64,000 nt of DNA from assembly GCA_963675665.1 (NCBI GenBank), contig OY776510.1:4736001-4800000 (forward strand), read 5' to 3'. Positions 34,074 to 63,108 of this stretch are shown here, piece after piece. The translations under genes were made by a program, and so were the position numbers. The notes beneath the pieces are model-generated. The model ran no database searches. It was not told where the DNA came from and worked only from the letters and a program-made list of their open reading frames with translations. The stretch's first letter is position 1. Every line of letters starts with the position of its first letter. This stretch comes from Spirochaetia bacterium. Its GTDB lineage: Bacteria > Spirochaetota > Spirochaetia > UBA9216.

Positions 34074-34120
34074 TGATAAATTCAGTATAATCAGAATAAA
34101 CCCGGAATCAAATATCCGCC

Positions 34121-34149: not shown

Positions 34150-34157
34150 TCCGTCAG

Positions 34158-37038: not shown

Positions 37039-37061
37039 TTCCACTCTCCTTCATTGAAAAA

Positions 37062-38487: not shown

Positions 38488-38538
38488 GAAACTCCTCCTT
38501 AAATAATATTTGCAGCAGGAAACTCCTGCTTAACACCC

Positions 38539-42064: not shown

Positions 42065-42081
42065 AAACACTCCTTCCATAT

Positions 42082-42813: not shown

Positions 42814-42827
42814 TATGTGTCCTGCCT

Positions 42828-42857
42828 TGTGGTAACATATACGTATATGTTACCACA
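42828..42857. promoter_or_regulatory. Perfect 30-bp palindrome, probable operator over the -10/+1 of the SDR-ABC-AOR operon
   Basis: TGTGGTAACATATAC|GTATATGTTACCACA; overlaps the minus-strand promoter TTGACA (42874-42869)-16 nt-TAACAT with an extended -10 TG. Confidence 0.75.
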
Positions 42858-42892
42858 CATATCACATTTGTCAATAAGATATTTGCATTTTT

Positions 42893-42934
42893 TGGTCGAC
42901 CAGTTCTTGACTTATGCGGATACCGTAGTATACT
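42893..42934 (+). promoter_or_regulatory. FadR-type palindrome and promoter of the divergent regulator
   Basis: TGGTCGACCA (42893-42902), then TTGACT-16 nt-TATACT and 6 nt to ATG 42941. Confidence 0.65.
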
Positions 42935-42940
42935 AAACTT

Positions 42941-43645
42941 ATGGAAATAGATAATTTTCAACCGATTGAAGAAAAAGATAAAACCGAAAAGATTGTAGAT
43001 GTGCTTCGAAACCTTATAGTATCGGAAAAATTAAAACCGGGCAGTGAACTTCCGGCAGAAAGAGAGTTTGCCGCTCAACTCAATGTAAGCCGATACAGCC
43101 TCAGGGAAGCTCTCAGGGCAGCCCAGGCTCAGGGGCTTATTGAAATAAGCAGAGGAAAAAGACCAAGAGTAACAAATCCCTCGTCAGAAGCAGCGATTCA
43201 AATACTGGGACTTGCGATTAAAAGGTCCAAAGCCACTTTTTTCGATCTGGTAATAGCGAGAATAAGCCTTGAATGTGAGATAGCAGGTATTGTAGCTGCA
43301 AAAGTAACGAATGATTTACTTGAGAAACTGGAAATCATAACCAAACAGATGGAATACCATAAAGATGATAAAGAATTTTGCGCTGAAAAAGATCTTGAAT
43401 TTCATAATGCCTTGCTGGAAGCAAGCGGTAATCAGGTTTTTAAAATAATGCTCTCGTCCGTTGCTCAACTTTTAATGACATCCAGAATGGCAACTCTTGA
43501 ATTAACCGGGGTCGATCGCGCCCTGGAAGGTCATAAAAATATTATTATCGCTCTAAAAAAGGGCGACAGCACACTGGCAAAAGAAGCGATGCTTAAACAC
43601 CTTGAGATGGCGGAGGATGATATACTTAAACTTGATACTATGTAG
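42941..43645 (+). CDS. GntR/FadR-family regulator 1
   Basis: LKPGSELPAERE..VSRYSLREAL wHTH; FCD domain DLEFHNALLEASGN. Confidence 0.92.
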   Translation: MEIDNFQPIEEKDKTEKIVDVLRNLIVSEKLKPGSELPAEREFAAQLNVSRYSLREALRAAQAQGLIEISRGKRPRVTNPSSEAAIQILGLAIKRSKATFFDLVIARISLECEIAGIVAAKVTNDLLEKLEIITKQMEYHKDDKEFCAEKDLEFHNALLEASGNQVFKIMLSSVAQLLMTSRMATLELTGVDRALEGHKNIIIALKKGDSTLAKEAMLKHLEMAEDDILKLDTM

Positions 43646-44354
43646 ACGTCTTCCTGATCTTCTCTGCATTGGCCTGGGCCTTCAGTAAATGCTCAAGCAT
43701 GAGTTCTTCAGCAAGTTCCGCCTTTCCGTCCTTTACTGCATTAAATATTCCGATATGATCCTTCAGACTCTTCTCCGGTTGATCTTTAATTATCAGGGTA
43801 GTCTCCTGTGTTTTTATCAGCATGTTTCTTGCAAGCGCAAGCATCTTTTCAAATACCGAGTTACCGGCTGCAGTTGCAAGAGCACTATGAAAGGCGGTAT
43901 CGCCTTCAACGCCCAATCCGCCTGAAGCTATATCGGATCTCATTTTCTCTATACTCAAAGCAATGTTCTTTAAGTCATTATCTGTTCTTCTTTCAGCGGC
44001 AATTTTTGCAATTTCCGTTTCCAGAAGCTTTCTGAACTCAAGCATTTCTATAATAACAGTCTGTTCACTTGCCAGAATTTCAGAAAACGGATTTAGAAGA
44101 GCTTCAATTGACACCTTATTAACAAAAATACCGCCCCCGGTACCGACCTGCGGTTTAAGAAAACCAAGAGCTTCAAGAACCCTCAGGGCTTCACGTATGG
44201 AGGCCCTGCTGACCTGGAACTGCTCTGACAGTTCCCTCTCACTCGGAAGCTGTTCGCCTTCCTTGAAGGTTCCGCCGATAATCATACTCTGGAGCCTCTT
44301 CAGCACCTCTTCAGAGAGACGACTCTTTCTAATAGGTTCTATCCGCGGCTCCAT
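43638..44354 (-). CDS. GntR/FadR-family regulator 2
   Basis: QLPSEREL..VSRASIREAL; DTAFHSALATAAGN; last gene of the central operon. Confidence 0.92.
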   Translation of the reverse strand: MEPRIEPIRKSRLSEEVLKRLQSMIIGGTFKEGEQLPSERELSEQFQVSRASIREALRVLEALGFLKPQVGTGGGIFVNKVSIEALLNPFSEILASEQTVIIEMLEFRKLLETEIAKIAAERRTDNDLKNIALSIEKMRSDIASGGLGVEGDTAFHSALATAAGNSVFEKMLALARNMLIKTQETTLIIKDQPEKSLKDHIGIFNAVKDGKAELAEELMLEHLLKAQANAEKIRKTST

Positions 44355-44361: not shown

Positions 44362-45816
44362 TTACTCCTTGACTGCTTCTACTGCATCCTCAAATGCCTG
44401 ATTAATCATCTGAAGCGGAACTTTCTCAATATAACCCTCTTTATTCATAGAGTCTACAAGCTTTCTTGAATAGGTTATATCCTCCAATGCCTTGTTAAAA
44501 ACTTCTTCACGGCTCAATTCAACACGCGCCAGGCCTTCTTTAATAGCCTGCATGGCAACATCGGCTGCTTCATACGGAAAAACTCCCGGCTCATCCATGG
44601 TAGCGATTATATTATCGGGTGTAATACCCCTATTCTCGGCATACCTTGCGAGCGATTCGGCTGCGGCAATTGCCATACCGTCGGAAATCTTTCTTGCTCT
44701 AACAAGAAGCGCCCCTTTTAAAATCCCCGGAAATCCGACCGAATTATTAACCTGATTCGGGAAGTCTCCCCTCCCGGTAGCTACAATAAAAGCGCCTGCT
44801 TCTTTAGCCGCATAGGGATAAATCTCCGGAACGGGATTGGCGCAGACGAATACTATAGACTTATCAGCCATCCGGCTGACATCTTCAGGAGATACGGTAT
44901 CCGGCCCCGGCTTTGAAAGCGCAATCAGCACATCGGCCCCTGTCATTGCCTCACTGAAATCGTCTATCTTGTCCGGATTGGTCTGCCGGCACAGTTCCCA
45001 TTTCCGGTAAAATCTTTCATCAGCCTCAATATCCTTTCTGTCTTTGTGAAGGGAACCTTTGGAATCAAACATTATTATCTTTGAAGGGTCAGCCCCCGCC
45101 TTTATTACAATCCGTGCAATTGTGGCATTAGCAGCGCCGGCGCCGAGAAGAACAATCTTTATATCTTCAATCTTCTTTTCCGCCAGTTTGACCGCGTTGA
45201 TCAGCCCCGCCAGAGTGACACAGGCTGTTCCCTGGGCGTCGTCATGCCAGACCGGGATGTCGCATTCTTCACGAAGGGTATCAAGAACCCTGTAACAGTT
45301 AGGTTGGGAAATATCTTCTAGGTTTACAGCGCCGAATGAAGGCTGGGCCATTTTTACAAATTCAATAATTTTATCGGGATCATTCTCGCCTTTTTCATTC
45401 CTGCTGTCGACACAAAGAGCTGTGGCATCCACGCCCCCAAGGTATTTCATAAGAAAGGACTTCCCCTCCATTACACCGAGCCCACCGGGCGGCGTACAAT
45501 TGCCGTCTCCAAGGACCCTTGTTGAATCGCTGACAACCGCTACATAATTCCCTTTATTGGACAAGTCGTACGCGGCTTCATTATCGTCCCTTATGGAAGT
45601 TGATACCCTGGAAACGCCCGGCGTGTACCACACATTAAACCAGTTGAAGCCGAAAACTCCGGCTTTCGGCACCGTCTGCATCTTCCCGCCGTAAAACATA
45701 TGGGCTTTTTCAGCAAGGTTCTTTAAAAAAACTGTTTTGAGCCTTGCGGACTGAGCCTCGCTAAGATTTCTTTTTTTTATTTCCTCTTCAAGATTGTCCA
45801 GTTCAAGATTAATCAT
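44362..45816 (-). CDS. NAD(P)-dependent malic enzyme
   Basis: YTPGVS, DSTRVLGDG, VMEGK, VNLEDISQP, WHDDAQGTA, GAGAA, ANPVPEI, ATGRGDFPNQVNN..FPGI; start at ATG 45816 (GGAGG SD). Confidence 0.92.
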   Translation of the reverse strand: MINLELDNLEEEIKKRNLSEAQSARLKTVFLKNLAEKAHMFYGGKMQTVPKAGVFGFNWFNVWYTPGVSRVSTSIRDDNEAAYDLSNKGNYVAVVSDSTRVLGDGNCTPPGGLGVMEGKSFLMKYLGGVDATALCVDSRNEKGENDPDKIIEFVKMAQPSFGAVNLEDISQPNCYRVLDTLREECDIPVWHDDAQGTACVTLAGLINAVKLAEKKIEDIKIVLLGAGAANATIARIVIKAGADPSKIIMFDSKGSLHKDRKDIEADERFYRKWELCRQTNPDKIDDFSEAMTGADVLIALSKPGPDTVSPEDVSRMADKSIVFVCANPVPEIYPYAAKEAGAFIVATGRGDFPNQVNNSVGFPGILKGALLVRARKISDGMAIAAAESLARYAENRGITPDNIIATMDEPGVFPYEAADVAMQAIKEGLARVELSREEVFNKALEDITYSRKLVDSMNKEGYIEKVPLQMINQAFEDAVEAVKE

Positions 45817-45838
45817 TATCTTCCTCCAATAAAACATT

Positions 45839-45929
45839 CCCGCATGGATGCGGGCTACGGAGACGAAGTTTGATCAGCAACGCTTATCAAACTTTAAAAA
45901 GATAAAAAGTCATGGAAGACTTTTTATCT
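45839..45929. repeat. Composite three-hairpin element with two CATGGA loops
   Basis: CCCGC-ATGGAT-GCGGG; AAGTTTGAT...ATCAAACTT; AGATAAAAAGTC-ATGGAA-GACTTTTTATCT. Confidence 0.75.
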
Positions 45930-47192
45930 TTCCTCCTGTTTTTTTTCAAGCGGCAGAACTGATCCGCCGTAGGGCATAATATGAACTCTGGCGTCCGGGC
46001 CTTTCCTTTTCAAGGCTTCATCCAGCGCTTTCTGCGGAGACTCAAACGGCTCCATAAAGATCTTTCTTACATAATCGTCGGGCATTGCCGAAACGAGACA
46101 GATATCCGCCTTTTCGAGAATCAAACCGATTGCCGCGGCTTTATGACCGCCGAGAATGAAATTCCGCTGAATTTCTTCAATCATGTCTTCAGGTTTTTCG
46201 AAATCTTCCATCCATCTTTCAAAAGATTCTCCGCCCAGTCCTTCGGAACATTCCGCGACAAGAATTATTATGCCGCCGTCTTTTACCGCGTGCTTTGAAT
46301 TATCAAGAGCTTTCTGGGCCTGATACAAATTCATATCTTTTGGAAATCCCCCCGGAGAGACTATTACGATGTCGGCTTTTTCATCAAGCGGACAGCTGTA
46401 TATCCTGTCCAGAAAACGGCAGCCCTCCCTGTGCGCCAGTACGGGGTCTCCTCCGAAAGCTCCTATTATGTTCTTGTGTTCATCCAGTACTACATTAATC
46501 AGAAAATCGATTTTAATAAAATCTGCGACTTCTTCAATATCCTCCCTCACAGGATTACCCGTCATATTGCCGGCCCGGGCGCCGTCTTTAACCATATTGC
46601 TGTGGTTTTTCTGGATGGCTGAAAAGGTCGAAACTCCCGGCATTATAGCCTTATACCCGCCGCTGTAACCGGCAAAATAATGATATTCAATATTTCCCAG
46701 ACATATCCGTTTATCCGCCTCGACTACAGTTCTGAAGATATCTACTGGGGTTCCCCGCGATGTTGTTCCCAGCGATACGACATCATCAGGATCACTGTCT
46801 ATGCATTTAATCCTGTCGTATATATCGTTTCCCGCAAGCTTCTTTTTTTCATCTTCGGTGTGCTTTCGATGACTTCCAAGCCCAAACACAACGGTTATGT
46901 CGGAATCGGCAATGCCGACCCGGTTCAATTCATATACAAGCTGAGGCAGGACCTTATAGCTCGGCATAGGTCTTGTTATATCGCTTGTTATGATCACAAC
47001 CTTTTCCCCTTTTTTAAACAGCTTGCTTACCGAGGCGCAACCGATCGGGCTCAGAATTGATCGGGCTATCAGCGTTTCTTCATACAAGTCGTTCTGAATC
47101 TCCGACGCCCTCAGGACAGAGCCGGTATTCAAATCCGGAATATTCAACTCTCTCGATTGTCTTCCGTATTTCAGTTTAATATTCATCCTCAA
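45924..47192 (-). CDS. LarA-family nickel-pincer 2-hydroxyacid racemase/epimerase (candidate malate racemase)
   Basis: SDITRPMPS, GLGSHR, EYHYFAGYSGGYK, DMNLYQAQKA, LGGHKA; immediately upstream of malic enzyme. Confidence 0.85.
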   Translation of the reverse strand: MRMNIKLKYGRQSRELNIPDLNTGSVLRASEIQNDLYEETLIARSILSPIGCASVSKLFKKGEKVVIITSDITRPMPSYKVLPQLVYELNRVGIADSDITVVFGLGSHRKHTEDEKKKLAGNDIYDRIKCIDSDPDDVVSLGTTSRGTPVDIFRTVVEADKRICLGNIEYHYFAGYSGGYKAIMPGVSTFSAIQKNHSNMVKDGARAGNMTGNPVREDIEEVADFIKIDFLINVVLDEHKNIIGAFGGDPVLAHREGCRFLDRIYSCPLDEKADIVIVSPGGFPKDMNLYQAQKALDNSKHAVKDGGIIILVAECSEGLGGESFERWMEDFEKPEDMIEEIQRNFILGGHKAAAIGLILEKADICLVSAMPDDYVRKIFMEPFESPQKALDEALKRKGPDARVHIMPYGGSVLPLEKKQEER

Positions 47193-47195
47193 ACC

Positions 47196-48596
47196 TCATT
47201 TTCTTTCGGGCATTTTATGCACGGAAAGTCCTTCGATATCATGCACACATTCCATTACCGCTTCGGAAACCGTCGGATGCGGATGAATTAATCCGCCCAG
47301 TTCTTCAATAGTCAGCTCAGCACTTATCGCAAGGGCAACCTCCGATATCAGCTCTGTAGCTTTGGGGCCTATCATTTGACACCCTATAACAGCGCCTGTC
47401 CTGTTATCCGAGACGATCTTGATAAAACCGGTATTCTCGCCTGTTATAAAGGCCTTGCTGTTACCGGCAAAAGAATAATGACCGCACTTTACATCTATTC
47501 CTTCAGCAGCAGCTTCCGCCCCGGTTTTCCCCGCGGAGGATATCTCTGGGCGGGTATAAACGCAGGACGGAATTACATCCTGATTTGTATGATTTTTTTC
47601 CCCTGAAATATGCGCGACTGCGATTATTCCCTGTGCCGATGCGGCATGAGCCAGCTGCAGCCCCCCGGAAACATCGCCTATTGCATAAATATTGGGGACG
47701 TTTGTCTGCATGTTGCTGTCGGTTTTAATAACTCCCCGGATTTCAGTTATCCCGGCGGATTCAAGATTCAAACCGTCTGTGCAGGTTTTTCTGCCCGTTG
47801 CTATCATGATCTCATCAGCCTGAATTACTTCTTCGCCTGCCCCGCTGCTGATCAAAGTTTTTATACCGTTCTCCCGCCGGACGCTTATAACCTTTACGCC
47901 GGTCCGGATTGTTATACCGGATTTTTTAAGATGTTTTTCCAGTTCAGCTGCAATATCCCCGTCCATATTGGGAAGCAACTGCGGCTGCATTTCCAGAATT
48001 ATTACATCGACTCCGAGATCATTCAGAATTGTCGCACACTCAACGCCTATTACGCCGCCGCCGATTATTATCATGCTTGCCGGAAGTTCCCTGTTCTCTT
48101 CCAAAAGGGTATCGCTGGTCCAGTATTGTATTGTATCCAGCCCTTCTACCGGAGGAATTGCGGGGACCGAACCCGTTGCAAGTATAATATTTTCGGCGGA
48201 GATTACAACATCTTCACCATTGCCCGTGCATCTGAGCCTGTTACGTCCTTCGAAAACAGCCCTTGCTTTCAGGACTTTCACCCCGTTTGCTTTAAGAAGG
48301 CCTGCTACCCCCGATTTCAGCTGATTAACTACCCGATCTTTATAACCGTAGAGCGCATTCTGATCGACCTTGGGGGCTCCTGCTTTTATCCCGAATTTCT
48401 CTGCCGTCTTTATCACATCAAGTATTTCACATGAATGAAGCATTGCCTTCGTCGGTACGCATCCCCTGTTAAGGCATGTGCCGCCGAGTTCATTTTCTTC
48501 AATCAGAACCGTTTTTATTCCAAAACGGGCGGCCCTTATGGCTGCCACATAGCCGCCCGGGCCTCCGCCTATTACTGCGAGCTTATATTGTTCCAT
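47196..48596 (-). CDS. lpdA: Dihydrolipoamide dehydrogenase (E3)
   Basis: GGGPGGYVAA, GGTCLNRGCVPTK, GGGVIG, HPHPTVSE. Confidence 0.95.
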   Translation of the reverse strand: MEQYKLAVIGGGPGGYVAAIRAARFGIKTVLIEENELGGTCLNRGCVPTKAMLHSCEILDVIKTAEKFGIKAGAPKVDQNALYGYKDRVVNQLKSGVAGLLKANGVKVLKARAVFEGRNRLRCTGNGEDVVISAENIILATGSVPAIPPVEGLDTIQYWTSDTLLEENRELPASMIIIGGGVIGVECATILNDLGVDVIILEMQPQLLPNMDGDIAAELEKHLKKSGITIRTGVKVISVRRENGIKTLISSGAGEEVIQADEIMIATGRKTCTDGLNLESAGITEIRGVIKTDSNMQTNVPNIYAIGDVSGGLQLAHAASAQGIIAVAHISGEKNHTNQDVIPSCVYTRPEISSAGKTGAEAAAEGIDVKCGHYSFAGNSKAFITGENTGFIKIVSDNRTGAVIGCQMIGPKATELISEVALAISAELTIEELGGLIHPHPTVSEAVMECVHDIEGLSVHKMPERK

Positions 48597-48606
48597 AACT
48601 AATTCC

Positions 48607-49911
48607 CTAAATAAGTCTGTAAGGGTTCTCCAGAATCGATTTTATCAACATCAGGAATTCCGCCGCCGGCGCCCCGTCTATCACCCTGTGATCATAAGTC
48701 AGCGTAAGGCTGCATACAGGCCTTATCTCCAGCTTGCCGTCAACAGCAACAGGTTTATCCTTTATTGCTCCTACAGCCAGGATTCCGCTTTCGGGTTCAT
48801 TTATAATAGCTGTAAACCTGTCCAGTCCGTACATTCCGAGATTGGAAACAGTAAAAACCGCACCGTTAAGTTCTTCAGGCATCAGTTTTCCGCTCTTTGC
48901 CTTTTCTCCCAGTTCCCGGCTTTCACTATTGATTTCCTCAAGATTCTTATGAACAACGTCCCTCATAACCGGTACAATCAGGCCTTCCTCTAAAGCTACA
49001 GCCATCCCTATATTAATATCCCGGTAACTGAGTATTTCATCACCCTGAAGGCTGCAGTTAAGTGCCGGCATCTGCTCCAGCGCAGCCGCCGCAGTTTTAA
49101 GTATGATATCGTTATATGAAACCTTGATTCCGGCTTCCTTCAACATCGCGCGAAGCCTTACAGCTTCAGTCATTTCAACATCAACATTGTGGGTTGCCTG
49201 CGCGGCCGTATCGAGGCTTGATCGCATCCGCTCCGCAATCACCTTTCTCATCCCCTTCAGCGGTTTCCGGATTATGCTGTCCGCGGACGCATCCTGGCTT
49301 CCCTCAAGGTCGTGGCTGTAAATCTTGCCGCGAGGCCCGCTTCCGCCGACCTTCGATAAATCAACCCCCTGCTGCTGAGCAATTCGTTTTGCAAGCGGCG
49401 TGACTGCAGCTGAAACGGTTTGAGCGGACAGAACATCGCGCTCAATCACAAGCCCGTCCGGTCCGCTGCCGGCGATTCCTTCTATATCCAGGCCCTTTTC
49501 ACCGGCCCTCATTTTCGCGCGGGGGCTCGCAAACTTTCTCTGCGTATCCCTGCCGTCAGCAGTTACTGCAGTAAGATTCGGTACAGCAGCTGAGGCAGCT
49601 TCGTTTACGCCCGAAACCGGGGACTGCTGCTCCGCGCCTTCTTTTTCCGCTATTATCTCAGAGATATCTTCTCCGCTCTCACCGATAACCGCAATGGTTT
49701 CGGTAATCGGTACGACATCGCCCACGGAATTAAATATTTTAAGTATATGCCCGCCGGCGGGAGCGTCTATTTCAATTGTCAGCTTGTCGGTTTCCATCTC
49801 AAAGAGAGGATCGCCTTCATTTACAGAATCACCTTCCTGTTTAAACCACTCCAGTATTGTTCCTTCGGTCATCTGCAAACCCTGTTTGGGCATTATCACC
49901 TTTGTCGCCAT
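48607..49911 (-). CDS. Dihydrolipoamide acyltransferase (E2), AcoC/PdhC-like
   Basis: One lipoyl domain (ETDKLT), two E3-binding repeats (ASPRAK..GSGPDG; VTPLAK..GSGPRG), catalytic DHRVIDG. Confidence 0.92.
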   Translation of the reverse strand: MATKVIMPKQGLQMTEGTILEWFKQEGDSVNEGDPLFEMETDKLTIEIDAPAGGHILKIFNSVGDVVPITETIAVIGESGEDISEIIAEKEGAEQQSPVSGVNEAASAAVPNLTAVTADGRDTQRKFASPRAKMRAGEKGLDIEGIAGSGPDGLVIERDVLSAQTVSAAVTPLAKRIAQQQGVDLSKVGGSGPRGKIYSHDLEGSQDASADSIIRKPLKGMRKVIAERMRSSLDTAAQATHNVDVEMTEAVRLRAMLKEAGIKVSYNDIILKTAAAALEQMPALNCSLQGDEILSYRDINIGMAVALEEGLIVPVMRDVVHKNLEEINSESRELGEKAKSGKLMPEELNGAVFTVSNLGMYGLDRFTAIINEPESGILAVGAIKDKPVAVDGKLEIRPVCSLTLTYDHRVIDGAPAAEFLMLIKSILENPYRLI

Positions 49912-49920
49912 GATATTCTC

Positions 49921-50898
49921 CTACTTGTATAAAACAGTTTTTGCACCTTCGACAATATTGTCAACACCGGGCACAACCGCATCTTCCAGAACCAGGGAAA
50001 ACGGCAGCGTACAGGCTTTTGCCCCCAGTCTTTCAACCGGAGCATCAAGGTATTTAAAGGCCTTCTCTGTAATCTGCGAAGCGATTTCCGCGCCGACGCC
50101 CCCCGTCTTGTGTGCTTCATGGACTATAACTGCTCTGCCCGTTTTTTTAACCGAATCGACAATTGTATCGATATCAAGCGGCAGGACGGTTCTGGGATCA
50201 ATTATCTCCGCGTTAATACCTTCAGAGGCAAGCTTTTCAGCAGCCTCAAGGGCCCTTGAAACCATCAAAGAGGTAGCTATAACGGTTACGTCGGAGCCGG
50301 GCCTTACAACTGAGGCCTTCCCGAAGGGAACGGTAAAATCCGGATCATCAGGTACTTCGCAGCTTGAAGCATAAAGGGCTTTGTGTTCAAAGAACATTAT
50401 CGGGTTATTGTCCCTGATTGCCGTTCTCAAAAGCCCTGCTGCATCAGCCGCATTTGACGGCATGGCGACCTTCAATCCGGGAATATGCACAAAGAAAGCC
50501 TCAAGACTCTGGGAATGCGTTCCTGCATTGCCCCGTCCTATACCCTGCTGGCCCCGGATTACCATCGGGATGGAAGCCTTGCCTCCGTACATATATCTGA
50601 GTTTGGCAGCCTGGTTCAGAATCATGTCCATTGCAACATATGTAAAATCCATATACATAAGTTCAACTATGGGCCTCATTCCGGCAAGGGCCGCGCCTAT
50701 CCCGGCGCCAACAAAACCCGCTTCCGAAATCGGCGTATTTCTGACTCTGCCGCCGAATTCATCCAGCAGTCCTCTTGTGCACCCGAAAATACCGCCCTGC
50801 TCGGCAATATCTTCTCCGATTATAAAAACATCCTTGTCTCTACGCATTTCTTCAGCAATTACATCACGGATCGCAACAGCATATTTTTTAACACTCAT
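49921..50898 (-). CDS. TPP-dependent dehydrogenase E1 beta, AcoB-like
   Basis: IGEDI..GGIFG, NTPISE, PIVELMYMDF, NQAAKLRYMYGG, HSQSLEA, FFEHK. Confidence 0.9.
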   Translation of the reverse strand: MSVKKYAVAIRDVIAEEMRRDKDVFIIGEDIAEQGGIFGCTRGLLDEFGGRVRNTPISEAGFVGAGIGAALAGMRPIVELMYMDFTYVAMDMILNQAAKLRYMYGGKASIPMVIRGQQGIGRGNAGTHSQSLEAFFVHIPGLKVAMPSNAADAAGLLRTAIRDNNPIMFFEHKALYASSCEVPDDPDFTVPFGKASVVRPGSDVTVIATSLMVSRALEAAEKLASEGINAEIIDPRTVLPLDIDTIVDSVKKTGRAVIVHEAHKTGGVGAEIASQITEKAFKYLDAPVERLGAKACTLPFSLVLEDAVVPGVDNIVEGAKTVLYK

Positions 50899-50909
50899 TA
50901 TTATCTCCT

Positions 50910-51866
50910 TCAGTCACAGTAAACATTATCCAGAACATGCGTCGGGTCCGGTTCGGGGCTGTTTATTGCAAAATCCTCAGCCTCGGCAATAATCCTGTCC
51001 GCCTCAGCATGCGCCGCATCAATTCCGGCCTGGTCCATGACGCCTTCGTCGAGCATATACTTCTCAAGCCGCTTGATCGGACATTTCCGCTTCCATTCTT
51101 CTACTTCTTCTCTGGTCCTGTAAACTTCAGGATCTCCGGTCCAGTGCCCGTACCACCTGTAAGTCTTGCACTCGATCAGCGACGGGCCTTCGCCTTTCCG
51201 GGCCCTGACAAGGGCCTTTTTGAAAGCCTTGTCGACAGCAAAAATATCATTGCCGTCTACAACGGTTCCGGGAATGTTATACGCCTTTGCCCTTACCGCG
51301 ATATCTTCAACGGAAGTACTGATGCTAACGTGAGTGGATATTCCGAACTGGTTGTTTTCGCATACAAAAATAACCGGAAGTTTCCATACGGAGGCAAGAT
51401 TAAGCCCCTCGTGAAAAACTCCTTCGTTGGAAGCGCCGTCCCCGAAAAATGTGACGGCAACCTGGTCGGTTCCGCGCAGCTGCGCCGCGAGGCCGGCTCC
51501 GGTCGCAATCGGAATACCTGCGCCTACAATTGCATTGGCGCCGAGATTGCCTTTGGTAACATCAGCAATATGCATTGAACCGCCGCGTCCCCCGCAATAG
51601 CCGGTGGCTTTCCCCATCAGTTCGGCAAGAGCCTTGTCCGGTTCAGCGCCCTTGGCTATGCAGTGACCGTGCCCCCTGTGTGTGCTGGTAATATAGTCGT
51701 CATCGCCCAGATTGGAACATACTGTAGTCGGGACGGCTTCCTGACCTATCGTAAGATGCACCGATCCCCTGAGTTTATTCTCTTCGAAAAGCTTCAGAGC
51801 TTTTTCTTCAAATCTTCTTATCACAAGCATGTCGTGATATATTTTAAGCATTCGTTTCTTTTCCAT
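50910..51866 (-). CDS. TPP-dependent dehydrogenase E1 alpha, AcoA-like
   Basis: VHLTIGQEA, STHRGHGHCIAKG, GRGGSMHIAD, FFGDGASNEG...CENN, TYRWYGH; start at ATG 51866. Confidence 0.9.
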   Translation of the reverse strand: MEKKRMLKIYHDMLVIRRFEEKALKLFEENKLRGSVHLTIGQEAVPTTVCSNLGDDDYITSTHRGHGHCIAKGAEPDKALAELMGKATGYCGGRGGSMHIADVTKGNLGANAIVGAGIPIATGAGLAAQLRGTDQVAVTFFGDGASNEGVFHEGLNLASVWKLPVIFVCENNQFGISTHVSISTSVEDIAVRAKAYNIPGTVVDGNDIFAVDKAFKKALVRARKGEGPSLIECKTYRWYGHWTGDPEVYRTREEVEEWKRKCPIKRLEKYMLDEGVMDQAGIDAAHAEADRIIAEAEDFAINSPEPDPTHVLDNVYCD

Positions 51867-51889
51867 ATGCTTTTCTCCTAATAGCAATT

Positions 51890-51991
51890 CCTGCCATGGA
51901 GGGCAGGTTCTTAAGGTAGAGTTTTTAAATAAAAATTAAAAACTTCAAAATACAAAAAGTACGAAGTACTTTAGAAGTATTTTTTTGTATT
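51890..51991. repeat. Composite three-hairpin element upstream of E1 alpha
   Basis: CCTGCC-ATGGAG-GGCAGG; AGTTTTTAA...TTAAAAACT; AATACAAAAA...TTTTTGTATT. Confidence 0.7.
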
Positions 51992-51995
51992 CCTT

Positions 51996-52865
51996 CTATA
52001 TAATTCCGGCTACGATATCTACAAGATCTTCGGTGCCTTCAGCAATCAGCACTCCGGCAGCCTTAAGCGCCGCTTCCTTGTTTTCAGCAGATCCCTCTCC
52101 GTCCGGAGAAACTATCGCGCCGGCGTGCCCCATACTGGTATCCTTGGGCGCATTCTTGCCCGCTATCAATGCCACTACCGGTTTGGTAATATTTTCCTTG
52201 ATATATGCCGCGGCTATTTCTTCTTCGCTTCCGCCTATTTCTCCAATCATGACGATCACTTTTGTTTCTTCATCTTTCTCAAAAAACGGCAGAATATCCA
52301 CAAACATCGAACCGGGGATCATATCTCCGCCTACTCCGATGCAGGTCGACTGCCCGATATTCTTTTTCTTCATCATAAAAACCGTTTCATAACAGTTTGT
52401 CGCGCTGCGAGACATTATTCCCACATTTCCGGGCAGGAAAATTCGGTGGGCCATAAAACCTGCTTTGGCTTTGCCCGGAGAAATTATTCCGAAAGAATTC
52501 GGTCCTATCAATCTGCAGCCTTTTTCCTTTGCAAGATAATGAAGTTTCAGCATCTCATGAACGGGAACTCCCTCGGCAATGGTTATGACCAAAGGTATCC
52601 CCGACAGGATAGCCTCATATGCCGCTTTATACATGAATCTGGGCGGCACAAAGAGGACGGTAGCATTCGCGTCCGTCATTTCCTTTGCCTGCAGAACTGT
52701 ATTGAATACGGGAATTCCGAGGACAGAGGTGCCGCCCTTTCCCGGAGTAACACCGGCTACAACCTTTGTACCGTATTCAAGCATCTGCTCGGTATGGAAA
52801 GAGCCTTCCCGGCCTGTTATTCCCTGAACTATTAGTCTGGTATTTTCATCTATAAAAAAACTCAT
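51996..52865 (-). CDS. ADP-forming acyl-CoA synthetase alpha subunit (SucD-like)
   Basis: VQGITGREG, GVTPGKGG, IGPNSFG, IGEIGG, MGHAGA (phospho-His); atypical SRSATNCYE. Confidence 0.9.
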   Translation of the reverse strand: MSFFIDENTRLIVQGITGREGSFHTEQMLEYGTKVVAGVTPGKGGTSVLGIPVFNTVLQAKEMTDANATVLFVPPRFMYKAAYEAILSGIPLVITIAEGVPVHEMLKLHYLAKEKGCRLIGPNSFGIISPGKAKAGFMAHRIFLPGNVGIMSRSATNCYETVFMMKKKNIGQSTCIGVGGDMIPGSMFVDILPFFEKDEETKVIVMIGEIGGSEEEIAAAYIKENITKPVVALIAGKNAPKDTSMGHAGAIVSPDGEGSAENKEAALKAAGVLIAEGTEDLVDIVAGII

Positions 52866-54004
52866 AACCCCATCCCCTGTGCAAGCACTTCGACTCCTTC
52901 CTTCAGACCGTCAGCCATTTTAATCCCGCCGCGGATCGTGTTGATGATTTCAAGACCCTTTTCCCTGTTTGTTCCTTCAAGTCTTGTTACCAGTCTTATT
53001 CCGTTCATATCGGCCATTGCAGCCTTTATTCCGTTTGCGATTTCGTCGCATCTTGTTATACCGCCGAAAATATTTATAAAAATTGTATCCACCCCGGAAG
53101 CCGAAGCTACTATTCTGAGAGCTTCCTTTATTCGTTCCGCAGTGGCCCCGCCGCCGAGATCAAGAGCGGAAGTCACTGTCATGCCGCGCTTGGTTATCAG
53201 ATCTATCGACGACATAATCATCCCGGAACCATTGCTGATTACCGCAATATTGCCTTCATTCCTGACCGGAATATATAAAAAATCAAATTTTCTTGCCTCA
53301 AGAACAAGGGGGTTCTCTTCTATTTCATCCCTGAAATCCTTGATATCACCGTGTTTATAAAGCGAATTGTCATCGATATCAATCTTGCCGTCGAGGGCCA
53401 TGATCCTGTTTTGTTCATCAATTATTAACGGGTTAATCTCTGCAAGCATGCAGTCCATTCCGATAAAAACATCGTACAGTTTCTTTACAACATTACGGAA
53501 TTCATCAGTATAATCACGGTTAAGACCTGATTTATCGATTGCATAATCTATAATAAAATCATCAATAATATCAGAAGGATTTATAAGAACTTTCACAATC
53601 TTTTCCGGATACTTATCAGCAATCTCGTTTATATCAACCCCGCCCTCAGGGCTGAAAATCATAACCGCTTTCTTGTATTTACGATCCAGGGTAAAGCTGA
53701 GATACATTTCCTTCCTGATTTCAACTTTTTCGGTAATAAAAATCCGTTTGACCGGCAGGTTTTTAATCTTCATATCAAGAACGGAGGAGCCTCTTTCAAC
53801 AAGTTCATCGTCATTCCCGGCAAACTGTACTCCTCCAGCCTTGCCGCGCCCGCCGGTCTGCACCTGGGCTTTGATAACTGCAGGGTAATTAACCTTACCC
53901 TGCAGGGCCTTAAGCTCTTCAACCGACGAGGCAACACACCCCTCGCTGCATGGAAGCTCAAAGCGCTTAAACAGTTCATGTGCCTTATATTCAAGCAGTT
54001 TCAT
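52862..54004 (-). CDS. ADP-forming acyl-CoA synthetase beta subunit (SucC-like)
   Basis: MKLLEY, KAQVQTGGRGKAGGV, EINPL, LDLGGGA, NIFGGITRCD, RLEGTN; atypical NGSGMIMSSID. Confidence 0.9.
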   Translation of the reverse strand: MKLLEYKAHELFKRFELPCSEGCVASSVEELKALQGKVNYPAVIKAQVQTGGRGKAGGVQFAGNDDELVERGSSVLDMKIKNLPVKRIFITEKVEIRKEMYLSFTLDRKYKKAVMIFSPEGGVDINEIADKYPEKIVKVLINPSDIIDDFIIDYAIDKSGLNRDYTDEFRNVVKKLYDVFIGMDCMLAEINPLIIDEQNRIMALDGKIDIDDNSLYKHGDIKDFRDEIEENPLVLEARKFDFLYIPVRNEGNIAVISNGSGMIMSSIDLITKRGMTVTSALDLGGGATAERIKEALRIVASASGVDTIFINIFGGITRCDEIANGIKAAMADMNGIRLVTRLEGTNREKGLEIINTIRGGIKMADGLKEGVEVLAQGMGL

Positions 54005-54009
54005 CTATA

Positions 54010-55383
54010 TTATTCCTCTTCAGCCCATATCTCTTCATCAGTCGGAATAACTACGTTCGGTTTAATCTTGGCTACCCGGGTTATATTTAGGAGGTGCTTA
54101 TAATAAAAATTCTCGGAAATACTGTTGTTTCCCCATGAACCGCAACCCAGGGTGCTGGTAGCATTCAACCCGTTCAGAAAAGACCCGCCGATATTGATTG
54201 AACACGGCTGATTAACCAGGATTCGGCTTACGGGAGCTTTTTCGGCAAGCCTGACAATGTTTTTATCATTTTCAGAGTGGATAACAACAGTGTGGCCCTT
54301 TCCTTCTACCTCAAGGTTTTCAAGAACTATCTCAACAGCCTCGCCAAAGTCTTTATATTTAAACGGAACTATAACCGGAAACATTTTTTCTTTTCTGAGC
54401 AGGCTGTCCGTGTTTGAGTTTTCTTCAGGAATCACGATAACGACCGTATCCTCCGGCATTTCCACTCCGGCCCGCTCTGCAATGGTCTGAATCGGCTGAC
54501 CTATCAAATCCCTGTTTATAATTCCGTTTGGGAAAAGGGCTGTAACCAGCTTCTCACGTTCATCAGCATCAGTTACTACATAGCCGCCGTTAGCCGCGAG
54601 CTCTTTCAATACATCGTCATAAAGTTCTTCAGGCGCTATCACCGTTTGTTCGCCGGAACAGATGATTCCGTTATCAAAAACACGCCCGGTCACTATCTTC
54701 TCGACGGCATCCTTTAAATTAACACCCCGATCAATAACAGCCTGAACATTCCCCGCGCCTACTCCGAAGGACGGTTTACCGCTTGAATATGCGGCTTTTA
54801 CCATTCCTGCGCCGCCGGTGGCCACAGTCACATCGGTCATCTTCATCAGAAGATTCGAACGTTCAATATTTACATCCTCTACAACCTGAACGATATTTTC
54901 AGGAGCATTAAACTCCTTTAAGATCTTGTTCCATTCGTCCACCAGGAACTTTGTGCAGTTTACAGCCCTGGGATGCGGAGCAATTATTATTGTATTCCGT
55001 CCCTTAAGCGCCGCCATCGCGTTTGCCATAGGAGTGACAATCGGATTTGTACAGGGCTGAATTGCGCCTACGACTCCGATTGGTTTCGCAATCTCTATGA
55101 TTCCAAGCTCTGCATCCTCAGCAATAATCCCCTGTGCCTTTTTACCTTTCAGACTGTGCCACATAATCCTGGCCTTTCCGAGGTGCTTCTTTGTTTTAAA
55201 TTCTACAGTTCCCATCTTTGTTTCATTGTGCGCCATCTCGGCCAGCGGCACAGCATTGTCATAAACATACTTTGCAATCGCCCTGATCATTTTATCTATT
55301 CTTTTCTGATCGAAGGATTCAAATTCCTTAAGCGCGGTTCTTGATTTAACAACAAGCTCTTTAATATATTCTTCGTTTGTCAT
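54010..55383 (-). CDS. CoA-acylating aldehyde dehydrogenase, succinate-semialdehyde dehydrogenase/succinyl-CoA reductase-like
   Basis: PCTNPIVTPMANAMAALKGRN, ATGGAGMVKAAYSSGKP, FDNGIICSGEQ, KEKMFP, TLGCGSWGNNSISEN, closely following the Clostridium kluyveri SucD pattern (recalled, not aligned). Confidence 0.88.
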   Translation of the reverse strand: MTNEEYIKELVVKSRTALKEFESFDQKRIDKMIRAIAKYVYDNAVPLAEMAHNETKMGTVEFKTKKHLGKARIMWHSLKGKKAQGIIAEDAELGIIEIAKPIGVVGAIQPCTNPIVTPMANAMAALKGRNTIIIAPHPRAVNCTKFLVDEWNKILKEFNAPENIVQVVEDVNIERSNLLMKMTDVTVATGGAGMVKAAYSSGKPSFGVGAGNVQAVIDRGVNLKDAVEKIVTGRVFDNGIICSGEQTVIAPEELYDDVLKELAANGGYVVTDADEREKLVTALFPNGIINRDLIGQPIQTIAERAGVEMPEDTVVIVIPEENSNTDSLLRKEKMFPVIVPFKYKDFGEAVEIVLENLEVEGKGHTVVIHSENDKNIVRLAEKAPVSRILVNQPCSINIGGSFLNGLNATSTLGCGSWGNNSISENFYYKHLLNITRVAKIKPNVVIPTDEEIWAEEE

Positions 55384-55409: not shown

Positions 55410-55506
55410 TTTTAATGGTCTGACCTTTAAATTATTGATCCATGTACTGTTTTTGTCAAGCACTGTTTACATTTTAATGGACAGACCTTTTCAAAAAAGG
55501 TATATT
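55410..55506. promoter_or_regulatory. Divergent promoters with two FadR-type operators
   Basis: TTTTAATGGTCTGACCTTTA (55410-) and TTTTAATGGACAGACCTTTT (55472-); minus-strand TTGACA (55459-55454)-17 nt-AATAAT; plus-strand TGGACA (55478)-17 nt-TATATT (55501-55506). Confidence 0.72.
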
Positions 55507-55513
55507 TCCATTG

Positions 55514-56254
55514 ATGGATCAAAAAATTACACCTATCAAGCGCAAAAGAGTCTCTGAAGAAGTTTTCAGACAATTATTCGACATGATAAACGATCATATT
55601 TACAGCCCGGGAGATCAGCTTCCAAGCGAAAGAGAGCTGGCTGAAAGATTCAAGGTCAGCAGGGCTTCAGTAAGAGAAGCCGTTAAAACCCTTGAAACGA
55701 TGGGTCTTATAGAATCAAGTGTAGGTGTCGGCGGGGGCAATTTTGTAAAGGAAGTGTCTCTGGAAACAATGATCTCTCCTTTCGCATCATTTCTTGATCA
55801 CAAAAAAAATCTTCTTGTGGAAATGATGGAATACAGGCTTGTACTTGAAACTGAAATAGCACGGCTTGCCGCCGAACGCAGAAACGATGAAGATCTAAAA
55901 AAAATTGAGGCCTCGGTGGAAGCAATGCGCAAAGAGGTTGCTGACGGAGGACTTGGCCTTTCAGGCGATAATATGTTTCACGAATATGTTGCCTCAGCAA
56001 CCCATAACCAGGTCTTTGTCCATATGCAGGAACTGGCGAAGACATTGCTTGAAAAGACGCGTGAATCGTCTTTGAGCGTGAAAGGGATTCCCCAACGGGG
56101 AATCGAGCAGCACCGCCGTATCTTCGAAGCCATCAGGGCGGGATCTCCGAAAGCCGCCGCAGAAGCGATGCATGAGCATATAACGGAAGCCATGATCAAT
56201 GTTCAGAAGCACGAGGGAATAAACCAGGGCAGCGATCAGTCTTCCGGCATATAA
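55514..56254 (+). CDS. GntR/FadR-family regulator 3 (paralog of regulator 2)
   Basis: QLPSEREL..VSRASVREAV; DNMFHEYVASATHN; ATG at 55514. Confidence 0.92.
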   Translation: MDQKITPIKRKRVSEEVFRQLFDMINDHIYSPGDQLPSERELAERFKVSRASVREAVKTLETMGLIESSVGVGGGNFVKEVSLETMISPFASFLDHKKNLLVEMMEYRLVLETEIARLAAERRNDEDLKKIEASVEAMRKEVADGGLGLSGDNMFHEYVASATHNQVFVHMQELAKTLLEKTRESSLSVKGIPQRGIEQHRRIFEAIRAGSPKAAAEAMHEHITEAMINVQKHEGINQGSDQSSGI

Positions 56255-57285
56255 ATAGCTTTTATACCTTTCTCCGCCTCAAGAAGACCAAATGTCTGTT
56301 CCCAGTCTTCCAGCCTGAAATTGTGCGTAATAATGTTCGACAGCATATCTCCTTTATCCCGAAGAAGACCAAGGGCCTTGTCCCAGGATGTATAGCTTGA
56401 ACTGAAGTTGAACCTTATGTCGAGTACCTTGTGCATTGCAGCGTTCCACGGGAACTGTATATATTCATCGGCGCAGAGTCCTATCGCTGAAACCCTTCCC
56501 TTACGTCGCAATGCCGCAACTCCGTCTCTAATCGCAGGAGGCGCCCCGCTCGTCTCTATCAGAACATCCGCTCCGCGCCCGCCAGTCAGCTCGTTTATCC
56601 TGTCCTGCAGGTTCTCTTTCTGCACATTGACGATATAGTCGGCGCCGAGCCTCCGTGCAGCATCAAAACGGATTATCTCTCCGCTGTTCATTCCTGTCAT
56701 CAGGACACTGCCTGCACCCTGCATTTTGGCAATAAACGTAGCCAGTATCCCCATCGGTCCGGCGCCGGTTACAAGCACAAAGTCCTGCATCTCTATTACC
56801 CCGGCTTCAGACACCTGGTGCACGGCTATGGCAAGGGGTTCGGCAAGCGCTGCAAGTTCGTAGCTGACTCCTTCGGGTATCCGGTGAATAAGCTGAGCAG
56901 GCATTTTAAGGTAATCTGCAAAGGCCCCGTCTATTCCCCAGCCCGGAGAGCGCTTGTCCGCGCACATCTGAACCATTCCCTGCCGGCAGTATTCGCAAAG
57001 CCCGCAGTTCATCGAATGGGGTTCGGACACCACCCTGTCTCCGACGCTTACGTTTTTTACAGCCGCACCCGCTTCGACAACCTCCCCGGAGAACTCATGC
57101 CCGAGAATGACCGGCGGCCAGTATGGAAAATGATCGTGCCGGATATGCAGATCGGTTCCGCATACCCCTGCTGCCTTCACTTTTATAAGAACCCAGTCGG
57201 GCTCGCCCAGTTCCGGCGCAGGCACTTCGCGCACTTCGATATTTCCGGGTCCTTTTGCTGTTTTTACCAACGCTTTCATTGTCAT
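56236..57285 (-). CDS. Zinc-dependent medium-chain alcohol/polyol dehydrogenase
   Basis: CGTDLH, GHEFSG, CGLCEYC...C, LAEPLA, GAGPMG. Confidence 0.9.
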   Translation of the reverse strand: MTMKALVKTAKGPGNIEVREVPAPELGEPDWVLIKVKAAGVCGTDLHIRHDHFPYWPPVILGHEFSGEVVEAGAAVKNVSVGDRVVSEPHSMNCGLCEYCRQGMVQMCADKRSPGWGIDGAFADYLKMPAQLIHRIPEGVSYELAALAEPLAIAVHQVSEAGVIEMQDFVLVTGAGPMGILATFIAKMQGAGSVLMTGMNSGEIIRFDAARRLGADYIVNVQKENLQDRINELTGGRGADVLIETSGAPPAIRDGVAALRRKGRVSAIGLCADEYIQFPWNAAMHKVLDIRFNFSSSYTSWDKALGLLRDKGDMLSNIITHNFRLEDWEQTFGLLEAEKGIKAIYMPED

Positions 57286-59475: not shown

Positions 59476-59487
59476 TTCATTCTCCTG

Positions 59488-60552: not shown

Positions 60553-60554
60553 CC

Positions 60555-63048: not shown

Positions 63049-63067
63049 CGACAATCTCCTTAAATCG

Positions 63068-63098
63068 GGAGAGGAAACTGACATTCGGTTTCCTCTCC
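63068..63098. repeat. Hairpin between the binding-protein and ATPase genes
   Basis: GGAGAGGAAAC...GTTTCCTCTCC, 11-bp stem. Confidence 0.65.
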
Positions 63099-63108
63099 TT
63101 TCCGGTTA

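Follow-up and report, generated by a model that had tools for sequence, protein, structure and literature searches.

Which substrate would call for a CoA-acylating aldehyde dehydrogenase, an ADP-forming acyl-CoA ligase, a complete lipoamide-dependent dehydrogenase complex, a nickel-dependent racemase and a malic enzyme within one and the same operon? This question is raised by a ten-gene operon in the genome of a Spirochaetia bacterium (GenBank assembly GCA_963675665.1, contig OY776510.1), which we analyzed in a stretch of 64,000 nucleotides (positions 4,736,001 to 4,800,000 of the contig; hereafter, the window) and which runs on the minus strand from window position 55383 to 43638. We tentatively propose, with a probability of roughly 0.4, that the operon combines a module for carbon-carbon cleavage with a lower pathway that conserves energy, in which an aldehyde would be converted to malate and further to pyruvate with a gain of ATP. 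The genes and signals of the operon, in the direction of transcription and with model scores given against the respective cut-offs, are as follows:

55431..55459, minus strand: sigma-70-like promoter match, TTGACA-17-AATAAT, 5' of the aldehyde dehydrogenase start; 11 of 12 consensus positions, the best match of the region, by consensus alone
54010..55383, minus strand: CoA-acylating aldehyde dehydrogenase (ALDH) of the SucD (succinyl-CoA reductase) type (PF00171)
52862..54004, minus strand: beta subunit of an ADP-forming acyl-CoA ligase, SucC-like (NF001913, 384.9 against 370)
51996..52865, minus strand: alpha subunit of an ADP-forming acyl-CoA ligase, SucD-like (TIGR01019, 374.5 against 353.2)
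51890..51907, minus strand: GC-rich stem-loop with a weak T tail
50910..51887, minus strand: E1 alpha (thiamine diphosphate) of a lipoamide-dependent complex (PF00676, 304 bits)
49921..50898, minus strand: E1 beta (PF02779, PF02780; PRK09212 subfamily, 380.8 against 321)
48607..49911, minus strand: E2, dihydrolipoyl acyltransferase, with one lipoyl domain, two E3-binding stretches and a catalytic domain
47196..48596, minus strand: E3, dihydrolipoyl dehydrogenase (TIGR01350, 504.6 against 408.8), with the motifs CLNRGC and HPHPT
45924..47192, minus strand: nickel-pincer nucleotide (NPN)-dependent 2-hydroxyacid racemase of the LarAH6 malate-racemase type (NF052593, 565.5 against 500)
45839..45854, minus strand: GC-rich stem-loop with a T-rich tail
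44362..45837, minus strand: malic enzyme (ME) of the 491-aa type (PF00390, 62 bits, and PF03949, 83.8 bits, both over the gathering score)
43638..44354, minus strand: GntR/FCD (FadR-type) regulator, the last gene of the operon, beyond the piece 44362..55383 (Pfam)

This gene order is the one given by the original prediction, and it was borne out by the listing of open reading frames (ORFs) and by the Pfam and NCBIfam searches, with all of the catalytic motifs that we checked across the operon proteins intact. The genes are separated by −4 to 11 nt, with the exceptions of the 108 nt between SucD and E1 alpha and the 86 nt between LarA and ME, each of which contains one of the two stem-loops; that in the SucD/E1 alpha gap could be an attenuator or a processing site. 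Since the order ALDH-SucCD-E1 alpha recurs in metagenome loci, the arrangement is no chance juxtaposition.

In the route that we propose, a neighboring Zn-dependent alcohol dehydrogenase (Zn-ADH) would oxidize a hydroxy group of an imported carboxylic acid derived from a sugar or a cyclitol to give an alpha-hydroxyketone (acyloin), which the acetoin-dehydrogenase-like E1/E2/E3 complex would split. One half of the acyloin would leave through lipoamide as acetyl- or glycolyl-CoA with the formation of NADH, while the other half would come off as an aldehyde-acid of four carbons, for which a malate semialdehyde is the most likely candidate. The SucD-type ALDH would then turn this aldehyde into a CoA thioester (malyl-CoA), and the SucCD-like ligase would convert the thioester to free malate and ADP to ATP. 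Because its chiral center would be inherited from the substrate, the malate is probably in the D form, which the nickel-pincer racemase would convert to L-malate, leaving the ME to produce pyruvate, CO2 and NAD(P)H. We observe gene content, motifs, family placement, conserved or rearranged synteny and a sole SucCD in the genome; all substrates, the direction of flux, the stereochemistry and the acyloin as the substrate of E1 are what we infer.

The family placement of the last two enzymes supports the malate part of this proposal. The LarA homologue passes the malate-racemase model and stays under the cut-off of the lactate racemase model (356.4 against 460), its best solved relative is the malate racemase Mar2 (6d6z, 437 bits), and it keeps the cofactor and catalytic residues D71, R74, H108, H171, K181, H197 and K294 (Mar2 numbering), together with the substrate signature Y172/F173, Q293 and H350-K351. 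It is therefore of the malate-racemase type, as had been predicted. The roles of these residues and the Phe of group 6 are described in the available text of PMC7583248. Among 24 group-6-like LarA relatives, Phe173 is found in 22 and H350-K351 in all, while Mar2 has Lys173. We considered the replacements Lys173 to Phe and His180 to Tyr, relative to Mar2, as a sign of another substrate and rejected them, as Phe173 is the group-6 norm and position 180 varies. The last enzyme is likewise of a genuine ME type: it matches 3nv9 (“Malic enzyme” in the PDB, which we take to be that of Entamoeba histolytica) over its full length with 686 bits (residues 9 to 487), and it reaches no NCBIfam equivalog cut-off.

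Upstream of these, the ALDH has the solved structure of Clostridium kluyveri SucD (CkSucD; 8cei) as its best relative (474 bits, compared to 314 for AdhE), and an ungapped alignment to this structure places Lys66, Lys70, the catalytic Cys242, Ser243, His364 and Thr365 (CkSucD numbering) at equivalent positions. According to the available text of PMC10249356, Lys70 and Ser243 hold the distal carboxylate of the C4 acyl chain in CkSucD. The proposed role of the ALDH is hence the conversion of a C4 hydroxy-dicarboxylate semialdehyde to its CoA ester. In the ligase, the alpha subunit carries the phosphohistidine motif GHAGA at residue 246. As judged by tblastn, SucC and SucD are the sole copies in the closed 5.15 Mb genome, so the ligase is dedicated to the operon, and its context is a catabolic operon rather than the tricarboxylic acid cycle.

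Further evidence comes from the neighborhoods in which the same genes recur elsewhere, among several groups of anaerobes. The LarA query yielded 23 genome loci, whose neighbors were checked with 21 query proteins, and the SucC query yielded 15 metagenome loci, with L040/L041 and L043/L044 as near-duplicates. ALDH lies directly upstream of SucC in all 12 metagenome loci that reach upstream, and SucD is followed by E1 alpha in seven of the eight that reach downstream, the eighth (L048) having LarA-ME-GntR instead. ALDH-SucCD is the constant element across loci, and the same E1/E2/E3 clade is linked to it in most arrangements. LarA is associated with ALDH-SucCD in five arrangements: the order of the window, which L041 keeps through LarA (E1 alpha-E1 beta-E2-E3-LarA after SucD); ALDH-SucC-SucD-LarA-ME-GntR without E1-E3 in L007 (a Spirochaetaceae metagenome-assembled genome, MAG) and L048, in both of which the regulator after ME is an orthologue of that at 43638..44354; E1 alpha-E1 beta-E2-E3-ALDH-SucC-SucD-ME-LarA in Sedimentibacter hydroxybenzoicus (L021), whose ME is of a different, 391-aa type; TRAP transporter-ALDH-SucC-SucD-LarA-Zn-ADH-GntR in L068; and an E3-LarA fragment, as in the window, in L006. 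Eight of the 23 genome loci have an ME no more than about 1.5 kb away from LarA, and the other loci showed LarA alone among the 21 queries.

Two of the remaining loci help to separate the modules. In L045, a D-specific 2-hydroxyacid dehydrogenase follows E3 in the place of LarA, which fits a D-2-hydroxy acid as the product. No LarA or ME was found in the 21 kb covered in L043/L044, yet E1-E3 follows SucD there, and L070 has the order major facilitator superfamily (MFS) transporter-GntR-ALDH-SucC-SucD-E1 alpha-E1 beta-metallo-beta-lactamase (MBL) hydrolase-Zn-ADH-E2-E3. Taken together, the recurrence of LarA and its replacement in L045 point to a D-2-hydroxy-dicarboxylate as the likely product, most simply D-malate, and E1-E3 is tied to ALDH-SucCD itself, because it is present in seven of eight metagenome loci, including L043/L044, as well as in L070. 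Where the complex is missing from the locus, a gamma-aminobutyrate (GABA)-type aminotransferase (L007) or the Zn-ADH alone (L068) could supply the aldehyde. In a 400-genome sample of the class of Sedimentibacter, nine genomes have a SucC-like match at E ≤ 1e-90, the closest two being L068 and L070, and among 401 sampled genomes of the phylum of the window, an ALDH orthologue at E ≤ 1e-120 occurs in this genome only; the distribution of the cluster is therefore patchy, and the cluster probably moves from one lineage to another.

A more distant version of the pair was also seen in five Clostridia-class genomes (L062-L066; G433, G500, G758, G420 and G493), in which a SucC with 47-51% identity to that of Sedimentibacter has a SucD-type ALDH directly upstream. 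The ALDH-ligase pair is therefore a widespread module, and the sulfoacetaldehyde enzymes discussed below and this operon are probably just two of its uses.

In the window, the aldehyde would come from the E1/E2/E3 complex. The true start of E1 alpha is probably seven codons downstream of the listed one, giving 318 aa, which is the length of the database copy, and its thiamine motif GDG...NN is intact. It stays under the cut-off of the pyruvate dehydrogenase (PDH) equivalog TIGR03182 (374.2 against 393.85), which another E1 alpha of the same genome passes (L034:8792-9778, 436.6). E2 has the lipoyl-lysine motif TDK and the catalytic motif DHRVIDG (DHRxxDG) but reaches no E2 equivalog cut-off (TIGR01349, 337.8 against 445), and its match to the AcoC model NF011457 is limited to the lipoyl domain (93.5 against 307). 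Membership in a PDH complex would thus find both the E1 alpha and the E2 cut-offs unreached, E1 beta passing a subfamily model only. Relatives of E1 alpha at 67-84% identity are common in MAGs of anaerobes and bear names that are either generic (NCBI) or a mixture of acetoin:DCPIP (2,6-dichlorophenolindophenol) oxidoreductase and PDH (JGI). The nearest annotated plasmid E1 alphas (51-55% identity) sit in operons of the acetoin dehydrogenase type, one of which has an E2 named as an acetoin dehydrogenase subunit, and the cluster-linked E1 alphas form a clade of their own (6 rows, support 96/97), apart from the paralogues of the genome, including the one that passes the PDH equivalog. Aco-like cleavage of a putative acyloin, the second half of the original prediction, would fit an E1 alpha that stays under the PDH cut-off and has acetoin-type kin on plasmids.

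Several observations on related complexes were made alongside. On rhizobial plasmids from Agrobacterium (L053) and Aminobacter (L054), homologues of E1 alpha share their operons with E1 beta, E2 and an “NAD(P)H-dependent oxidoreductase”; the operon of Agrobacterium also has lpdA and lipA and adjoins a sugar ATP-binding cassette (ABC) transporter and a PfkB kinase, so acetoin-type complexes on such plasmids may be linked to sugar catabolism too. The genome of the window has five further clusters of the E1/E2/E3 type (L031-L035; G000:C1, at about 1.288, 2.14, 2.216, 3.379 and 4.185 Mb) and at least ten paralogues of aldehyde:ferredoxin oxidoreductase (AOR), both of them unusual in a spirochaete-like anaerobe. 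Two of these clusters adjoin sugar-ABC, ROK or GntR genes, and one adjoins genes for an acyl-CoA dehydrogenase, an electron transfer flavoprotein and an enoyl-CoA hydratase. Another observation was that IS110-family transposases with identical Pfam scores (L031:7769-8881 and L031:16223-17335; G000:C1, about 1.289 and 1.297 Mb) separate E1 alpha from E1 beta and E2 from E3 in one cluster, which is also split by a branched-chain-type ABC transporter. A lipoate-protein ligase, which bears on the lipoylation of E2, is encoded 30 kb from the operon at 14217-15299 on the minus strand (TIGR00545, 358 bits against 280).

Next to the operon promoter lie two genes that we count as parts of the system, because their counterparts in L070 match them best:

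55511..56254, plus strand: second GntR/FCD regulator, divergent from the operon promoter (Pfam)
56236..57285, minus strand: Zn-ADH, Tdh/IolM/IdnD-like (Pfam, NCBIfam)

Specifically, the Zn-ADH of the window is the best match in the genome (46%, 291 bits; next, 201) to the Zn-ADH that lies between E1 beta and E2 in L070, and the regulator is the best match (45%) to the GntR that precedes ALDH there; L068 likewise has a Zn-ADH in its operon, and L021 has one close to the cluster. The Zn-ADH of the window probably provides the acyloin, by forming its keto group, or else the aldehyde. As for the acyloin itself, cleavage of 2-deoxy-5-keto-D-gluconate, which derives from inositol, would give glycolyl-CoA and 3-hydroxy-4-oxobutanoate, leading to D-malate by Fischer-projection analysis, while 5-keto-3,6-dideoxyhexonate would give acetyl-CoA and 2-hydroxy-4-oxobutanoate. 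It is tempting to speculate, if with considerable doubt, that the complex acts as a lipoamide-linked “oxidative transketolase” on one of these two nonphosphorylated keto-sugar acids and defines a modular, kinase-free fermentation. Such a reaction would yield glycolyl- or acetyl-CoA and D-malate semialdehyde, with up to two ATP from substrate-level phosphorylation before pyruvate, and it would provide a physiological reason for the commonness of nickel-pincer malate racemases in anaerobes.

The wider surroundings of the operon hold further genes that might supply its substrate:

57535-59475, minus strand: AOR, in the upstream operon that ends in the Zn-ADH
59488-60552, minus strand: DUF4432 aldose-epimerase-like protein, in the same upstream operon
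60555-63999, minus strand: sugar ABC transporter, in the same upstream operon
42941-43645, plus strand: third GntR/FCD regulator
42082-42813, minus strand: short-chain dehydrogenase/reductase (SDR)
37447-42079, minus strand: ABC transporter with a substrate-binding protein (SBP) resembling rhamnose-binding proteins (best matches, 4kvf and 5bq3, both rhamnose-binding proteins)

The upstream operon (57535..63999) is a possible feeder, its link to the cluster being one that we only infer, and the module at 37447..43645 is possibly a feeder or an uptake system. In L040/L041 and L043/L044, the cluster likewise has SDR and sugar ABC genes beside it, but their identity is only 29-47%. Elsewhere, a TIM-barrel protein and an M24-like protein are found near the cluster in L041, L044, L046 and L049; a sugar ABC transporter in L041 and sugar ABC genes in L044 accompany them, and L041 further encodes an equivalog of inositol 2-dehydrogenase (IolG; 397.6 against 355). 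The feeder genes of L021 are TRAP transporters and a second nickel-pincer isomerase of group 22 (481.5 against 400), the MBL-fold hydrolase of L070 lies within its cluster, and the GABA-type aminotransferase of L007 adjoins its cluster. Across loci, these predicted feeder functions fit sugar or cyclitol acids. For the TIM-barrel and M24-like proteins of L041, L046 and L007, no NCBIfam model scored above 98 bits, and the TIM-barrel and M24 proteins of L041 and the group-22 isomerase of L021 have no homologue in the genome of the window at E ≤ 1e-10, so the feeders of L041 and L021 do not explain the window.

Several results weigh against the pathway from malate semialdehyde to pyruvate. The semialdehyde-malyl-CoA-malate-pyruvate route of the original prediction agrees with the types of the racemase and the ME and with the synteny of LarA and ALDH-SucCD, but not with the family of the ligase. 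The ligase falls outside the known malate-CoA ligases, scoring far under the MtkAB model (NF010647, 267.7 against 604) while passing the succinate-CoA ligase cut-offs; if active on malyl-CoA, it would represent a lineage separate from MtkAB. The action of the ALDH on malate semialdehyde is supported insofar as the enzyme is SucD-like and has Lys70 and Ser243. We rejected these residues as a mark unique to the operon ALDH, as Lys70 is present in 19 of 19 homologues and Ser243 in 18 of 19, including the two ALDH paralogues of the genome and ALDHs of more distant ALDH-SucC pairs; therefore, they cannot tell malyl substrates from succinyl ones, nor, perhaps, from those that are sulfonated. Also against the pathway, the genome encodes five LarA homologues (window positions 45924-47192 and 30431-31720; G000:C1:141381-142631, 1620851-1622116 and 2332555-2333781), while LarB, LarC and LarE were not detected in its single-contig, N-free 5.15 Mb sequence by profile searches (LarB, 39.3 at best against 175; LarE, 35.7 at best against 150; LarC, no match to TIGR00299 or PF01969) or by tblastn with the LarB, LarC and LarE ORFs of Sedimentibacter (nothing at E ≤ 1e-5). 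Of five other genomes with LarA that we checked, three likewise gave no LarC, and the NPN cofactor is either taken up from the surroundings or formed in an unknown way. On the side of the feeders, AOR and DUF4432 genes are absent beside the cluster in all of the other loci examined. Concerning the complex, the grouping of the E1 alpha clade with the acetoin-type plasmid E1s is weak (78/87).

E1 alpha is, moreover, only 20 bits short of the PDH cut-off and E1 beta is over the PDH subfamily model, which together with the classical lipoyl/peripheral subunit-binding/catalytic layout of E2 and the mixed JGI names of close E1 alphas would suit a 2-oxoacid dehydrogenase attached to the same core, either PDH for the pyruvate made by ME or a 4-hydroxy-2-oxoglutarate dehydrogenase that forms malyl-CoA. 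That the aldehyde can come from elsewhere, as the lack of E1-E3 in L007 and L048 implies, adds to this explanation. We nevertheless consider it unlikely: the genome already has a PDH in the E1 alpha that passes the equivalog, E1-E3 adjoins ALDH-SucCD even where ME or LarA is missing from the locus (L043/L044 and L070), a Zn-ADH is embedded among the genes of the complex in L070, and malyl-CoA coming directly from E2 would make the ALDH redundant. A much plainer annotation would have succinate semialdehyde, for example from GABA or 4-hydroxybutyrate, converted through succinyl-CoA to succinate and ATP, with LarA and ME as an unrelated malate pair. The closest characterized relative of the ALDH is indeed a succinyl-CoA reductase, both ligase subunits are over succinate-CoA ligase cut-offs, a GABA-type aminotransferase adjoins the L007 cluster, and LarA-ME pairs stand alone in many Clostridia. 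The five arrangements that bring LarA together with ALDH-SucCD are, however, hard to explain without a shared substrate, and with the D-2-hydroxyacid dehydrogenase that takes the place of LarA in L045, they make this annotation very improbable.

The other two alternatives keep the logic of the operon and change the substrate. A further candidate acyloin, an ordinary 5-keto-hexonate, would give tartrate semialdehyde and hence not malate semialdehyde as the C4 product. Such a 5-keto-hexonate, or a 5-keto-6-deoxyhexonate, would be cleaved to glycolyl- or acetyl-CoA and tartrate semialdehyde, which would proceed through tartryl-CoA to tartrate and ATP, LarA acting as a tartrate epimerase and the ME homologue decarboxylating one tartrate isomer. 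The resemblance of the Zn-ADHs to L-idonate 5-dehydrogenase and IolM, that of the SBP to rhamnose-binding proteins and the fact that no dehydratase for the deoxy carbon was seen beside the window operon would all be in line with tartrate. However, the recruitment of two ME subfamilies, one in the window and one in L021, is most easily understood if L-malate is the substrate of both, the clusters contain no genes for hydroxypyruvate or glycerate, and we know of no member of the malic enzyme family that uses tartrate. In plants and engineered strains, transketolase is known to split 5-keto-gluconate with formation of tartaric semialdehyde, as far as the available literature text describes it. 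According to the available text of PMC11770544, malate racemases epimerize tartrate as a side activity, yet the characterized LarAH62 prefers malate over tartrates by a factor of about 60 to 180. On balance, tartrate seems to us decidedly unlikely. The other of the two is a sulfonate look-alike, in which ALDH and ligase would act on sulfolactaldehyde and/or sulfoacetaldehyde, LarA would racemize sulfolactate, the ME homologue would convert sulfolactate to sulfopyruvate, E1-E3 would produce sulfoacetyl-CoA from it, and the ligase would release sulfoacetate with the formation of ATP. According to the original prediction, LarA and ME would be left without an explanation if the substrate were a sulfonate. 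This is wrong, because malate, malic semialdehyde and oxaloacetate have isosteres in sulfolactate, sulfolactaldehyde and sulfopyruvate, respectively. What is more, the SauS model NF047625 is the second-best NCBIfam match of the ALDH, the transporter nearby is of a type resembling those for 6-deoxy sugars and is joined in the region by the epimerase-like DUF4432 protein, and the characterized sulfoacetaldehyde enzymes SqwD/SqwKL and SauS/SauCD are homologous to the ALDH and ligase and occur in Spirochaetes by the available texts of PMC12890257 and PMC10413351, a further point to the disadvantage of malate; SqwD/SqwKL are described from Firmicutes, too (PMC12890257). But the SauS score (408.7 bits) stays under the cut-off of 600, LarA passes the malate-racemase equivalog, ME is of the canonical type, and a change of function would be needed in each of two ME subfamilies. 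Neither the window nor the six annotated flanks (L007, L021, L041/L044, L068 and L070) showed genes of sulfoglycolysis (isomerase, transketolase/transaldolase or sulfoquinovosidase) or an exporter of the TauE type, and the sulfoquinovosidase (YihQ) model NF007746 came out empty for the genome, a weak negative, as control genomes also stayed under the cut-off. These results render the sulfonate explanation improbable.

Compared to known systems, the pathway to malate that we favor is closest in its upper part to anaerobic acetoin catabolism in Pelobacter carbinolicus and Clostridium magnum, where AcoABCL works together with an acetylating acetaldehyde dehydrogenase. In both cases, an E1-E2-E3 complex would split an alpha-hydroxyketone and an acylating ALDH would make the second CoA ester, and the pairing of Zn-ADH and complex would parallel that of butanediol dehydrogenase and acetoin dehydrogenase, the Zn-ADH supplying the ketone. 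Unlike the acetoin system, the operon has an ALDH of the SucD type with residues for a distal carboxylate, a SucCD-like ligase that would discharge the CoA ester, a malate racemase and a malic enzyme; its substrate would not be acetoin, and E2 lies beyond the AcoC model except for its lipoyl domain. The combination of an acylating ALDH of the succinic semialdehyde dehydrogenase type with a SucCD-like ligase that yields one ATP per aldehyde, known from anaerobes among which are Spirochaetes, is shared with SqwD/SqwKL of the sulfo-transketolase variant and with SauS/SauCD of Bilophila, as described in the available texts of PMC12890257, PMC11659671 and PMC10413351. These enzymes differ in that they act on sulfoacetaldehyde and sulfoacetate within sulfoglycolysis or sulfonate-respiration clusters, of whose genes the operon has none, and in that the operon adds the lipoamide complex, the malate racemase and the malic enzyme.

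The chemistry around malate semialdehyde was originally said to be known mainly from engineered pathways. This has to be corrected, since the catabolism of L-carnitine in Acinetobacter baumannii, natural and demonstrated, leads from malic semialdehyde to D-malate and on to pyruvate and CO2 (PMC11353897). By the available text of this source, the intermediates are the same and the D configuration comes from the substrate there, but the route is aerobic, uses a non-acylating ALDH without a gain of ATP, obtains the aldehyde from a Rieske oxygenase, and has a decarboxylating D-malate dehydrogenase of the isocitrate dehydrogenase type in place of the racemase and the L-specific malic enzyme. Engineered 2,4-dihydroxybutyrate pathways share a malyl thioester or anhydride and malate semialdehyde (PMC5481828 and PMC12104201, in their available text); they are synthetic, reductive (from malate via the aldehyde to the diol) and ATP-consuming, whereas the operon is natural and would run oxidatively with a yield of ATP. 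The racemase belongs to the same curated family as Mar2 (LarAH6), whose discovery was made in the context of LarA-ME pairing, and while the available texts of the Mar2 studies leave the physiological source of D-malate open (PMC7583248 and PMC11770544), here the racemase is part of an operon that would generate it. No published description of the operon or pathway was found in the literature searched, the supplements of the LarA papers and Chu et al. 2023 lying outside that search; all components come from known families, and the combined route is undescribed.

If true, the proposal would provide a physiological source of D-malate and thereby give the largest functional group among the LarA proteins a role, which its discoverers left open, and it would extend the ATP device of acylating ALDH and ADP-forming ligase from sulfoacetaldehyde to C4 hydroxy-dicarboxylate aldehydes. 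It would also mean that a lipoamide complex cleaves sugar-derived acyloins in strict anaerobes, allowing sugar acids or cyclitols to be fermented without the ATP cost of a kinase, and that natural enzymes for malyl-CoA and malate semialdehyde are usable as parts in the engineering of 2,4-dihydroxybutyrate pathways.

Beyond the operon, the window contains a rhamnose locus (30431-35048 on the minus strand and 35140-37044) with rhaA (645 bits against 572), a 366-aa class II aldolase, a second LarA and an AOR. This LarA has the signature Y172/F173, Q293 and H350-K351 and scores 372 bits with NF052593, under the cut-off of 500. No rhamnulokinase was seen within the locus, which may represent a kinase-free route of rhamnulose cleavage. 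The ATPase of a rhamnose ABC transporter (24594-25718, minus strand, 374 aa) matches its profile only from about position 130, and an overlapping ORF of 162 aa lies upstream (25621-26109, minus strand); the latter may be the N-terminal part of the ATPase, the gene being frameshifted or split. Finally, an equivalog of glucosyl-3-phosphoglycerate synthase (13212-14201, plus strand; 392 bits against 262) suggests the synthesis of the compatible solute glucosylglycerate.

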